IMG/VR virus record: IMGVR_UViG_2541047728_000008
Origin: a virus
Lineage: Duplodnaviria; Heunggongvirae; Uroviricota; Caudoviricetes
Strand: one strand, 5' to 3'
DNA length: 6,007 bases
Shown here: piece by piece, positions 3,009 through 6,007 of the stretch
Numbering within the stretch: position 1 is the first letter of the stretch
Layout of the letters: every line of letters starts with the position of its first letter
Position numbers and translations under genes: made by a program
Notes under the pieces: generated by a model
The model's database searches: none
What the model was told of the DNA's origin: nothing
Seen by the model: only the letters and a program-made list of their open reading frames with translations

Positions 3009-3308
3009 ATGAAAAATAAAAATTCTGGCGTTACTGCCAGCGGCCCCGCTCGTCCTGAATTTATGAACGGCGATATTTACCGCGATAAATATGGCGGCAT
3101 GGTAACGATTAAAGGCGTGGCAGAACGGCGCATCACCTACCGTCGTGAAGGCTACGAATATGATTGCGTGATGCCTGTTTATCAGTTCGATCGTGATTTT
3201 TCTCTGGTGCAGGCAGTACCGCGTAGCGTGCCCACCAGCAGGGAGAAAGCACGCGCCAATATTCAGGAAATAAAAAAGATGCTTAACGTATTCAGGGGTA
3301 AAAAATGA
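3009..3308 (+). CDS. Small protein (99 aa), function unknown
   Basis: ATG 3009 lies 5 nt after the upstream stop, with GGAGAA SD at 8-nt spacing; stop TGA 3306-3308 overlaps the next start (ATGA). No recognisable motif. Confidence 0.55.
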   Translation: MKNKNSGVTASGPARPEFMNGDIYRDKYGGMVTIKGVAERRITYRREGYEYDCVMPVYQFDRDFSLVQAVPRSVPTSREKARANIQEIKKMLNVFRGKK

Positions 3309-5053
3309 AACTGGCACCGAACGTAAAAAAACAGCCACGCGGAATAAAACACAAAGACACAGAGGTAATTATTTTCGCGGGTAGTGATGCCTGGTCGCAC
3401 GCGAAACAATGGCAGGAGCAGGATGGCCCCGCATCCGGCGATAATGTGCCGCCTGTGTGGCTTGGGCCAAATCAGCTTGCCGAACTTGATGCACTGAAAA
3501 TTGTTCCGGATGGAAAAAAACGCGTAAGGCTGTACCAGGCCGGAGAACTGGATTTGGTGGAGACCAAAAAGATTGGTCAGAAGCTGGCGGCGGCAGATAT
3601 TCAGGACGCAAATTTTTACCCCGAAGGAATGCACGTCCAGAAGTGTGAAAACTGGCGGCGCTATCTGAATGCTGAGCGTGAAAATATTGCCGCAGGGCTT
3701 ACCATGCCGGAGCAGAAAAATACGCAACTGGCACAAATGGCAGACAGTGAGCGCGCACAGATGCTTGCTGGTCGATTTGATGGCGTTTGTGTGCATCCGG
3801 AAAGTGAAATCGTTCACGTATGGCGCGGCGGGGTATGGTGTCCGGTCAGCACAATGGAACTTAGCCGCGAAATGGTGGCGATCTATTCAGAGCACAGGGC
3901 CACTTTCAGCAAGCGCGTAATCAATAACGCCGTGGAAGCGTTAAAAGTTATTGCCGAACCAATGGGCGAGCCGTCCGGCGATTTGCTGCCGTTCGCCAAT
4001 GGTGCGCTTGACCTGAAAACGGGGGAATTTTCCCCGCACACGCCGGAGAACTGGATCACCACGAACAACGGCATTGAGTACACGCCACCAGCACCAGGGG
4101 AGAACATCCGCGATAACGCGCCAAACTTTCATAAATGGCTTGAGCACGCAGCCGGAAAAGACTCGCGCAAGATGATGCGTATATGTGCCGCGCTGTACAT
4201 GATTATGGCGAACCGGTACGACTGGCAGATGTTTATTGAGGCCACCGGAGACGGCGGGAGCGGTAAAAGTACATTCACACACATCGCCAGCCTTCTGGCA
4301 GGGAAACAGAACACGGTGAGCGCGGAGATGACATCGCTTGATGATGCTGGTGGGCGTGCGCAGGTTGTCGGGAGTCGTCTTATCGTCCTGGCAGACCAGC
4401 CGAAATATACAGGCGAAGGCACGGGCATCAAGAAAATCACGGGCGGCGACCCCGTGGAAATCAACCCGAAATATGAAAAGCGTTTCACTACGGTAATCAG
4501 GGCGGTGGTGCTGGCGACCAATAACAACCCGATGATATTCACCGAACGGGCCGGAGGCGTGTCACGTCGTCGGGTTATTTTCCGCTTCGACAATATCGTA
4601 AGCGAGGCAGAAAAAGACAGGGAGCTACCGGAAAAGATTGCGGCTGAAATCCCTGTCATTATCCGCCGCTTGCTGGCGAACTTTGCCGACCCTGAAAAGG
4701 CACGGGCTTTACTCATTGAACAGCGAGACGGTGATGAAGCACTGGCGATAAAGCAGCAGACGGATCCGGTTATTGAGTTTTGCCAGTTCCTGAATTTTCT
4801 GGAGGAAGCGCGCGGCCTGATGATGGGCGGCGGCGGTGACTCTGTCAGGTACACGACCAGAAACAGCCTTTACCGCGTCTATCTGGCGTTTATGGCGTAT
4901 GCAGGCAGGAGCAAACCGCTAAACGTAAATGACTTTGGCAAGGCTATGAAGCCAGCCGCGAAAGTTTACGGACATGAATATATTACGCGGAAAGTTAAGG
5001 GAGTAACGCAGACTAACGCAATAACAACAGACGATTGCGACGCGTTTTTATAA
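3305..5053 (+). CDS. Replication protein: SF3 (D5/P4-alpha C-terminal type) helicase-NTPase, putative primase-helicase
   Basis: 582-aa ORF with SD AGGGGT and ATGA overlap with the upstream gene. Walker A GDGGSGKST (aa 315-323, nt 4247-4273), Walker B-like RLIVLADQ (aa 358-365), SF3 motif C VVLATNNNP (aa 401-409). Upstream conserved block LPFANGALDLKTGEFSPHTPENWITTNNGIEYTP is typical of the D5_N / P4-family primase C-terminal region. Shorter than P4 alpha (about 777 aa), so a full primase domain is not demonstrated. Confidence 0.85.
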   Translation: MKLAPNVKKQPRGIKHKDTEVIIFAGSDAWSHAKQWQEQDGPASGDNVPPVWLGPNQLAELDALKIVPDGKKRVRLYQAGELDLVETKKIGQKLAAADIQDANFYPEGMHVQKCENWRRYLNAERENIAAGLTMPEQKNTQLAQMADSERAQMLAGRFDGVCVHPESEIVHVWRGGVWCPVSTMELSREMVAIYSEHRATFSKRVINNAVEALKVIAEPMGEPSGDLLPFANGALDLKTGEFSPHTPENWITTNNGIEYTPPAPGENIRDNAPNFHKWLEHAAGKDSRKMMRICAALYMIMANRYDWQMFIEATGDGGSGKSTFTHIASLLAGKQNTVSAEMTSLDDAGGRAQVVGSRLIVLADQPKYTGEGTGIKKITGGDPVEINPKYEKRFTTVIRAVVLATNNNPMIFTERAGGVSRRRVIFRFDNIVSEAEKDRELPEKIAAEIPVIIRRLLANFADPEKARALLIEQRDGDEALAIKQQTDPVIEFCQFLNFLEEARGLMMGGGGDSVRYTTRNSLYRVYLAFMAYAGRSKPLNVNDFGKAMKPAAKVYGHEYITRKVKGVTQTNAITTDDCDAFL

Positions 5054-5065
5054 TTTTTGGCAATT

Positions 5066-5298
5066 GCTGTCTACCTTGTCTACCTGATTACATAAAAGTT
5101 GTTTTAATTCAGTGTATTAATTTAGGTAGACAGCTTTTTTTTACTGTCTACAAGCTGTCTACCTTGTCTACCTGTTTTTGTAGCCAGCCGGAGGGATGAG
5201 TAGACATCAGGTAGATAGCGATTTTTTACTGTCTACTTCCATTAAACCCGCGTCATTACTGGCCTGAGCATCTATCAGGTAGACAGAGTAGACAAGGT
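5066..5298. repeat. Iteron array (core TGTCTACC), putative replication origin / helicase-binding region
   Basis: Exact 21-bp direct repeat GCTGTCTACCTTGTCTACCTG at 5066-5086 and 5154-5174, each a tandem dimer of TGTCTACCT. Inverted dimer copy at 5277-5297 (AGGTAGACAGAGTAGACAAGG). Exact 15-bp direct repeat TTTTTTACTGTCTAC at 5137-5151 and 5222-5236. Hexamer GTCTAC at 5069, 5078, 5146, 5157, 5166, 5231 and GTAGAC at 5126, 5200, 5279, 5288 (10 exact copies; about 0.1 expected by chance), plus degenerate copies. AT-rich tract 5087-5123 is a candidate unwinding element. Lies immediately downstream of the helicase gene. Confidence 0.65.
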
Positions 5299-5342
5299 GG
5301 GGGTAGGTCCAAAACTTTTTAAACGAGGGGGTAAAAATAAAA

Positions 5343-5600
5343 ATGCACACATCAGGAAAATTTAACAATCAGAAGAAATCACATAACCGCGCCATTGACC
5401 TTACAGAGCACTGGCTGAGGGTGGCGATAAAAATCATCGACCGCAACACGGGGGAAGGATATGCGAAAGCACATCCTGAACTAATAAGCGCATTCATGAC
5501 CACAGCGGCGGCAAACTTTGCCACGCTGACAGAACGGGAGATTGCCGAAGCGGAACAGGTAACAACCATCAACGTTAAAACCGGAGAGGTGGAATCATGA
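5343..5600 (+). CDS. Hypothetical protein (85 aa), translationally coupled to ssb
   Basis: ATG 5343 preceded by GAGGGGG; stop TGA 5598-5600 overlaps the ssb start (ATGA). Product MHTSGKFNNQKKSHNRAIDLTEHWLRVAIKIIDRNTGEGYAKAHPELISAFMTTAAANFATLTEREIAEAEQVTTINVKTGEVES has no motif I recognise. Confidence 0.55.
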   Translation: MHTSGKFNNQKKSHNRAIDLTEHWLRVAIKIIDRNTGEGYAKAHPELISAFMTTAAANFATLTEREIAEAEQVTTINVKTGEVES

Positions 5601-6007
5601 CAGCACAGATAGCCGCTTACGGGCGGCTGGTGGCTGACCCGCAGTTAAAGACCACCAGCAAGGGCACACAAATGGCTATGGCAAGCATGGCGGTCCCCCT
5701 GCCGTGCAATCAGGCAGATGACGGACAGGCGACGATGTGGTTATCCGTCCTGGCGTTTGGCAGACAGGCCGACGCACTGGCAAAACACCACAAAGGCGAG
5801 CTGGTGAGCGTGGCGGGTAACATGCAGGTAAGCCAGTGGACAGGCCAGAACGGCGAAACGCGGCAGGGCTGGCAGGTTATTGCAGACAGCGTAATCAGTG
5901 CCAGAACGGCGCGACCTGGTGGGAGCCGACGCAAGACCACAGGCACACAGGGTAATCAGCCACCAGCGGGAGGCGATGACCCTTACGGTGATGATATTCC
6001 GTTCTGA
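5597..6007 (+). CDS. ssb: Single-stranded DNA-binding protein (compact SSB, 136 aa)
   Basis: OB-fold SSB signature: YGRLVADPQLKTTSKGTQMAMASMAV ... MWLSVLAFGRQADALAKHHKGELVSVAGNMQVSQWTGQNGETRQGWQVIADSV parallels E. coli SSB ([28 protein letters not shown] ... [50 protein letters not shown]). Short Gly/Pro-rich linker and C-terminal acidic tip DDPYGDDIPF match the canonical DDDIPF tail. Stop TGA is the last codon of the window. Confidence 0.85.
   Translation: MTAQIAAYGRLVADPQLKTTSKGTQMAMASMAVPLPCNQADDGQATMWLSVLAFGRQADALAKHHKGELVSVAGNMQVSQWTGQNGETRQGWQVIADSVISARTARPGGSRRKTTGTQGNQPPAGGDDPYGDDIPF

Follow-up and report, generated by a model that had tools for sequence, protein, structure and literature searches.

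The iteron array at positions 5066-5294 of the DNA analysed here is, in all likelihood, the origin from which a Gram-negative phage-inducible chromosomal island (PICI), a member of the EcCICFT073 family, replicates vegetatively. The DNA (the window) is a stretch of 6,007 nucleotides from IMG/VR virus record IMGVR_UViG_2541047728_000008. A feature of this kind is already known: the PICI origin of the EcCICFT073 type was functional in an assay published in 2018. Two things are shown for the window: homology to the EcCICFT073 origin, for which Rep-dependent plasmid maintenance has been published, and co-variation of the iterons with the C-terminal domain of the initiator protein. An earlier note on this DNA had proposed an alpha-like origin with a distinct specificity; this proposal is supported by the homology of the initiator to P4 alpha, by iterons that differ from those of P4, and by the same homology and co-variation.

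The genes of the window, most of which were recognised by Pfam and NCBIfam matches (int, AlpA, Icd-like, DUF4222, D5_N/Pox_D5 and SSB), all lie on the + strand except the one for the YlcI/YnfO-like protein:

1-1239, + strand: tyrosine integrase with an arm-binding domain
1649-1858, + strand: AlpA
2204-2383, - strand: YlcI/YnfO-like protein
2580-2783, + strand: Icd-like protein
3009-3308, + strand: DUF4222 protein
3305-5053, + strand: pri-rep, encoding a 582-residue D5_N / DUF5906 / Pox_D5 protein; SF3 helicase/initiator and proposed iteron-binding protein
4760..5026, + strand: Pri-Rep residues 486-574, predicted winged-helix origin-binding domain (from a sequence match to 1KA8)
5343-5600, + strand: orf85, a conserved 85-residue open reading frame (phrog_1231) that always adjoins the origin
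5597-6007, + strand: SSB gene of the replication module (Pfam SSB, E=1.3e-16)

The window thus shows the unidirectional int-alpA-...-pri-rep organisation of Gram-negative PICIs, and it is assigned to the left part (int to ssb) of such an island of the EcCICFT073 family. The same gene order is found in the model island EcCICFT073 and in complete relatives of about 10 kb that occupy the cspD-clpS interval of E. coli F11 and JNEC-KY175; orf85 is annotated at the equivalent position in CFT073, F11, KY175 and VL40. Megablast with the origin region gave matches in 392 of the 5426 complete E. coli genomes, all of them chromosomal and with a median of one per genome. The whole window was found at more than about 90% identity in no complete E. 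coli genome of the collection. A scan of IMG/VR for the iteron pattern returned mostly single chance matches, and only the contigs carrying the +, +88, -~120 triple resembled PICIs. The nearest E. coli copy of the origin lies in a decayed island of VL40 (L001, positions 8181-12014, 99.3% identity), in which pri-rep is disrupted by insertions of IS421 and ISSso6 and the origin, orf85 and ssb are intact.

Two further repeats were observed upstream of pri-rep. The palindromic 14-mer TACTGGAATCCAGT occurs twice, at 2403-2416 and 2471-2484 (68 bp apart), with a partial third copy at 2448-2459; the pair is located where the YlcI/YnfO-like gene (minus strand) and the Icd-like gene diverge, in the stretch that separates them, and looks like a candidate operator pair of the island's regulatory switch. 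Shortly after the end of int, in the AT-rich DNA between this gene and alpA, positions 1281-1317 hold a perfect 12-bp inverted repeat (ATAAATCGTCGA / TCGACGATTTAT, spacer of 13 nt) that is not followed by a T-run; it may form a hairpin or be bound by a protein.

The first iteron begins at 5068, just 3' of the pri-rep stop codon at 5053. As claimed in the earlier note, ten exact copies of GTCTAC/GTAGAC are present, and within the 6-kb window all of them fall in 5069-5293. When the window was shuffled 200 times with dinucleotides preserved, 1.32 copies were found on average and 5 at most; chance clustering was ruled out, as none of the 200 shuffles reached ten copies. When TGTCTACC was searched with at most one mismatch, 11 sites were found inside 5068-5294 and only two in the rest of the window, both TGTCTGCC and chance-like. 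The following elements are distinguished:

5068..5084, + strand: iterons 1-2, tandem dimer TGTCTACC t TGTCTACC, 9 bp start-to-start; left flank of the AT-rich region
5085..5124, no strand: AT-rich spacer, predicted DNA-unwinding site (from composition and duplex stability)
5125..5132, - strand: iteron 3, TGTCTACC on the minus strand, opposite iterons 1-2 across the AT-rich region
5135..5142, + strand: T8 tract between iterons 3 and 4; its counterpart is a T6 tract at 5222-5227 in the second D2 copy
5145..5172, + strand: iterons 4-6, TGTCTACA followed by TGTCTACC t TGTCTACC
5199..5217, - strand: iterons 7-8, TGTCTACT and TATCTACC on the minus strand
5230..5237, + strand: iteron 9, TGTCTACT
5278..5294, - strand: iterons 10-11, inverted dimer closing the array, TGTCTACC and TGTCTACT on the minus strand

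The larger repeats that had been noticed were recovered as well. The two copies of the 21-bp direct repeat GCTGTCTACCTTGTCTACCTG, at 5066-5086 and 5154-5174, are exact; another direct repeat, of 15 bp (TTTTTTACTGTCTAC, 5137-5151 and 5222-5236), sits within a longer direct repeat of 28 nt (D2, 89% identity); and the inverted dimer corresponds to an inverted repeat (I1) at 5274-5294 that is 90% complementary to the dimer at 5068-5088. The orientation had been described as forward copies on the left and reverse copies on the right; the actual order is interleaved, + + (AT) - + + + - - + - -. Comparison of homologues showed that the conserved unit is TnTCTACC, with the core TCTAC(C), rather than GTCTAC, since position 2 of the octamer can be G, A or C. 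Iteron 8 lacks the G and is therefore missed by a count of GTCTAC.

The AT-rich spacer of the earlier note was delimited to 40 bp (5085-5124, 17.5% GC). Within the intergenic region no duplex is less stable than this block, which has a 30-mer ΔG of about −31.6 where the window averages −40.9 (sd 3.7) and so lies some 2.5 sd below mean stability; within the window as a whole, the int-alpA intergenic region is less stable. It is placed off-centre, with two iterons on its left and nine on its right. An AT-rich block is found at the equivalent position in most of the mapped relatives of the TCTACC class and of the P4 type, and is absent or shifted in L029. The AT-rich region of E. coli PICI origins has been named as a possible melting site (PMC6092414).

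E. coli PICI origins have been described as a pair of iteron groups with an AT-rich stretch between them, immediately 3' of pri-rep (Fillol-Salom et al. 2018, ISME J, PMC6092414). The array of the window aligns colinearly with the pri-rep/orf intergenic region of EcCICFT073, and every one of the 11 TnTCTACC iterons is in register; the AT-rich block is placed identically, the location 3' of pri-rep and 5' of orf85-ssb is the same, and so is the organisation of the island. The iterons of the window were equated with those of EcCICFT073 by this alignment, the published iteron letters being given only in an image (Fig. 2a of PMC6092414). The intergenic origins of the window and CFT073 are only 72% identical, and the differences include the spacers and position 2 of the octamer, where several window iterons have G and those of CFT073 have A or C. 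Among five E. coli copies, 92% of the iteron-core columns were invariant against 55% of the spacer columns (Fisher p=1e-8, a value that is overstated since the copies are related), which is evidence at the sequence level that the iterons are under selection. Iterons 1-2 were invariant in these five copies, and their position and orientation are kept across genera. The two islands also differ in their integrases, that of the window being of the cspD-clpS island type (EcCIIHE3034/EcCI18098) and not of the CFT073-site type.

The function of the homologous region was assayed with pKO3-blue, a temperature-sensitive plasmid. A fragment carrying pri and ori of EcCICFT073 gave colonies at the restrictive temperature of 44 °C, showing that the plasmid was maintained; the delta-pri construct gave no colonies, and with the delta-ori construct their number was significantly reduced but not reported as abolished (PMC6092414). 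From its homology to this tested origin, the feature of the window is taken to be an allele of the published origin.

The proposed initiator, Pri-Rep, has Pfam matches to D5_N, to the P-loop domain DUF5906 and, at the C-terminus, to Pox_D5, and it matches TIGR01613, the C-terminal domain of P4-family primases. It is 91% identical to the Pri-Rep of EcCICFT073; over the last ∼430 residues, which comprise the helicase and C-terminal domains, identity is about 99%, and nearly all differences are found in the first 150 residues. The nearest protein found (98% identical) is that of Shigella flexneri SFBU1023 (L009). Residues 141-571 align with residues 326-756 of P4 alpha at 41% identity, covering the helicase and the C-terminal binding domain, and on this basis Pri-Rep is regarded as a true homologue of alpha. 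Residues 486-574 match positions 2-89 of the chain of PDB 1KA8 (E=1e-6, a sequence match), which we take to be the origin-binding winged-helix domain of P4 alpha, the domain reportedly described by Yeo et al. in 2002.

The N-terminal part of the protein shows no relation to that of alpha. The first ∼140 residues (3305-3730) have no Pfam or NCBIfam match and do not align to residues 1-325 of alpha. Their best match is phrog_2850, a family to which no function is assigned; a weaker match is to positions 84-186 of phrog_864 (E=1.9e-20), which PHROGs labels DNA primase. Judged by these searches, the protein is named 'Pri-Rep / DNA primase family protein' without having a recognisable primase catalytic domain. 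Within pri-rep, at 4441-4451, the sequence GGGCGGCGACC was noticed, which matches lambda cosN at 11 of its 12 positions. It encodes the conserved motif ITGGDP and is kept in all relatives checked (L004:10454; L002:11402; L005:11127), and its likeness to cosN is probably a coding coincidence.

Phage P4, with its ori and crr, was the system compared in the earlier note. The proposal of an alpha-like initiator and a different octamer held up, and the nearest known system was found to be the Gram-negative PICI origin. Our comparison with P4 draws on its GenBank annotation (NC_001609) and on general background. The two systems share, besides the homologous initiator and the 1KA8 match, octamers of the form TnT..ACC and tandem dimers spaced 9 bp start-to-start. 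The annotated type-1 iterons of P4 are TGTTCACC, which differ from TGTCTACC of the window at two central positions, and neither TTCACC nor TGTTCA was found in the 400 bp downstream of the window's pri-rep. Unlike alpha, Pri-Rep lacks the N-terminal primase part of ∼325 residues and has the unrelated N-terminus of ∼140 residues instead, and the gene content of the island is PICI-like.

The crr of P4 follows immediately on the 3' side of alpha, just as the array follows pri-rep, and each 120-bp crr unit is oriented < > > > .. < <, a pattern similar to that in the middle of the array. Together with the homology of the initiators, this raises the possibility that the array is an auxiliary Rep-binding site, a crr-like enhancer or copy-control element, with initiation taking place at a second iteron site, as P4 ori and crr are 4.5 kb apart. 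We regard such a role as very unlikely. A second iteron cluster was found neither in the window nor in three complete islands (CFT073, F11 and KY175), where TCTACC sites cluster only at the array (with no other copy in the window); these elements thus have a single cis site rather than a bipartite ori and crr, and the 120-bp duplication is missing. Moreover, the array has its own AT-rich block between convergent iterons, and the pri-ori fragment of EcCICFT073 alone maintained a plasmid (PMC6092414). It is the lack of a second cluster combined with this sufficiency that makes the crr-like role unlikely. Overall, the sequence comparisons indicate that the array works like a P4 alpha origin, yet belongs to the PICI origin family and not to the P4 ori/crr system.

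The co-variation of iterons and initiator was determined from loci found by searching species-representative genomes with an alignment of P4 alpha and three PICI Pri-Reps. Of 364 confirmed loci, 80 were analysed (41-98% identity), and in most of these a short motif recurs 6-13 times within the 400 bp that follow the stop codon. The iteron classes were counted as follows, with the window, P4 and EcCICFT073 included alongside the scanned loci:

TCTACC, the class of the window: 18 loci
TTCACC / TGTTCA, the P4 type: 16 loci
GTGTTCA: 3 loci
GTCACT: 2 loci
GTATAC, CCTACC, GGACAG and GCACTG: 1 locus each

Between 11 and 13 TnTCTACC sites with conserved order, orientation and spacing were found in Shigella, Rosenbergiella, Xenorhabdus, Symbiopectobacterium, Yersinia and Raoultella, while a Pantoea locus has the left six sites only. 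Loci with P4-type TTCACC iterons have their scaffold in common with the TnTCTACC loci. Where the initiator of an E. coli PICI is unrelated, a different array occupies the equivalent position: the DUF927 allele of EDL933 has 11 copies of TAACCCGCA, and the RepA-family allele of EH2252 has 7-8 copies of AGTGGGGA. Some 30 loci of the Xenorhabdus/Photorhabdus type (L030-L063, proteins mostly of ∼800 residues) showed only weak repeats (GATGTA / TATACA, 3-5 copies) within 400 bp of the stop codon on its downstream side; here the origin is either more degenerate or located elsewhere.

Across 43 loci, C-terminal domains (residues 485-575 of the window protein) had an identity of 0.64 when the iteron class was the same and of 0.40 when it was not; the helicase cores gave 0.65 and 0.54. 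From the gap in C-terminal identity it follows that the iteron class goes with the C-terminal domain, and in these alignments it tracks that domain as expected if the domain reads the iterons.

The same comparison bears on the possibility that the repeats are chiefly transcriptional operators, bound by Pri-Rep, AlpA or the YlcI/YnfO-like protein and controlling orf85-ssb or read-through from pri-rep, with no role in initiation. The array does lie directly upstream of orf85-ssb, and no terminator-like site was found between pri-rep and the array or elsewhere in 4900-5500. Plasmid iteron arrays, too, often also autoregulate. Against this, the iteron class co-varies with the C-terminal domain of Rep (the comparison covered Rep domains), a scan of 4900-5500 for sigma-70-like promoters gave no match on the + strand and a single one, at chance level, on the minus strand, and TCTAC is nearly absent from the control regions of alpA and the ylcI/icd-like genes, with two isolated copies. 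In addition, deletion of the homologous EcCICFT073 region impairs replication (PMC6092414). There is, in our estimate, little chance that the array serves mainly as an operator; a secondary autoregulatory role of the origin is possible. A known RNA family was ruled out for the array, as the window gave no Rfam match anywhere at E≤0.1.

Satellites carry cos sites of their helpers, and repeats with inverted symmetry can bind a terminase or a recombinase, so that a packaging (cos/pac) or site-specific recombination site was also considered for the array. The repeats, however, track the C-terminal domain of the helicase protein, the two ends of the islands are where the att sites lie, and the exact 12-mer of lambda cosN in EcCICFT073 is located ∼3.5 kb downstream of its origin (L004:14629); an exact copy is also present at L004:15368. 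With the exact cosN elsewhere, the array was ruled out as a cos site, and packaging or recombination in general is scarcely credible as its function.

The reading as an origin also finds a parallel in the SaPIs, whose ori and Rep were reportedly studied by Ubeda et al. The helicase core of Pri-Rep matches the structure of SaPI5 PriRep5 (7OLA, E=6e-15), an SF3 helicase core, and a C-terminal winged helix is shared with the SaPI Reps, which in Pri-Rep is predicted and would read the iterons. SaPI Reps bind iterons downstream of rep via this winged helix and self-load at the AT-rich centre (Qiao et al. 2022, PMC9371898). Binding and melting of a SaPI origin by its Rep need no ATP. The arrangement described for SaPI origins, at least two opposed iterons on each side of an AT-rich region downstream of rep (PMC9371898), is seen in the window as + + (AT) - followed by more iterons; in both cases the iterons are directly downstream of rep and the AT-rich region lies between iterons that point in opposite directions. 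The SaPI iterons differ in being penta- or hexamers of unrelated sequence, the similarity of the proteins is distant, and the AT-rich block of the window is off-centre (2 + 9 iterons).

By homology, and with SaPI Rep and P4 alpha as precedents, we propose that after induction the C-terminal winged helix of Pri-Rep would bind the 11 TnTCTACC octamers. Rep assemblies on the iteron sets at both sides of the AT-rich block would then melt 5085-5124, and the SF3 helicase would self-load there without a separate loader. The single-stranded DNA-binding protein of the island (SSB, 5597-6007) probably coats the unwound strands. Priming could be provided by the N-terminal 140 residues of Pri-Rep or by the host DnaG.

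Two sets of loci illustrate how iterons and initiators vary among relatives. The Pri-Rep homologues of Pseudocitrobacter faecalis (L010) and Escherichia sp. ESNIH1 (L011) differ at 17 of 626 residues. Five of the 17 differences are C-terminal, including N598T and M601V in the predicted wing, and the iterons, at matching positions within the 330 bp after the helicase stop codon, are GGTATACAC in the one and GGTGTTCAT in the other. Judged from these sequences, the pair may be a natural specificity switch. Escherichia ruysiae (L023) and Kluyvera georgiana (L067) have iterons of the TCTACC class, yet their C-terminal domain is otherwise like that of the P4-type (TTCACC) group, with five extra residues (GPDKG) inserted in the predicted wing. 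By this combination, one iteron class is found on two domain lineages.

A broader reading, to which we give slightly less than even weight, is that the PICI origins, P4 crr and the arrays after alpha-like helicases in Enterobacterales and Aeromonas derive from one ancestral scaffold (>> AT < > >> .. << > AT <<), in which a change of only the octamer's central bases, together with a few residues of the wing, would re-code the specificity. The octamer would be of the type TnNNNACC, with TCTACC, TTCACC, TATACC and GAACACC as its classes and the L010/L011 pair as an illustration. If true, a shared scaffold would contradict the published view that the P4 and PICI replicons evolved independently, and would amount to a natural 'specificity code' for self-loading SF3 initiators.

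For the island itself the result is an annotation rather than a discovery: the origin, its iterons and the likely melting site are fixed to the base in a PICI of the EcCICFT073 family. PICIs with a near-identical C-terminal domain of Pri-Rep and TnTCTACC iterons should cross-replicate or be incompatible. The region would be a ready-made minimal replicon for PICI-based delivery vectors, and the set of loci from different genera provides natural pairs of iterons and binding domains with which the choice of origin by self-loading SF3 initiators can be studied.
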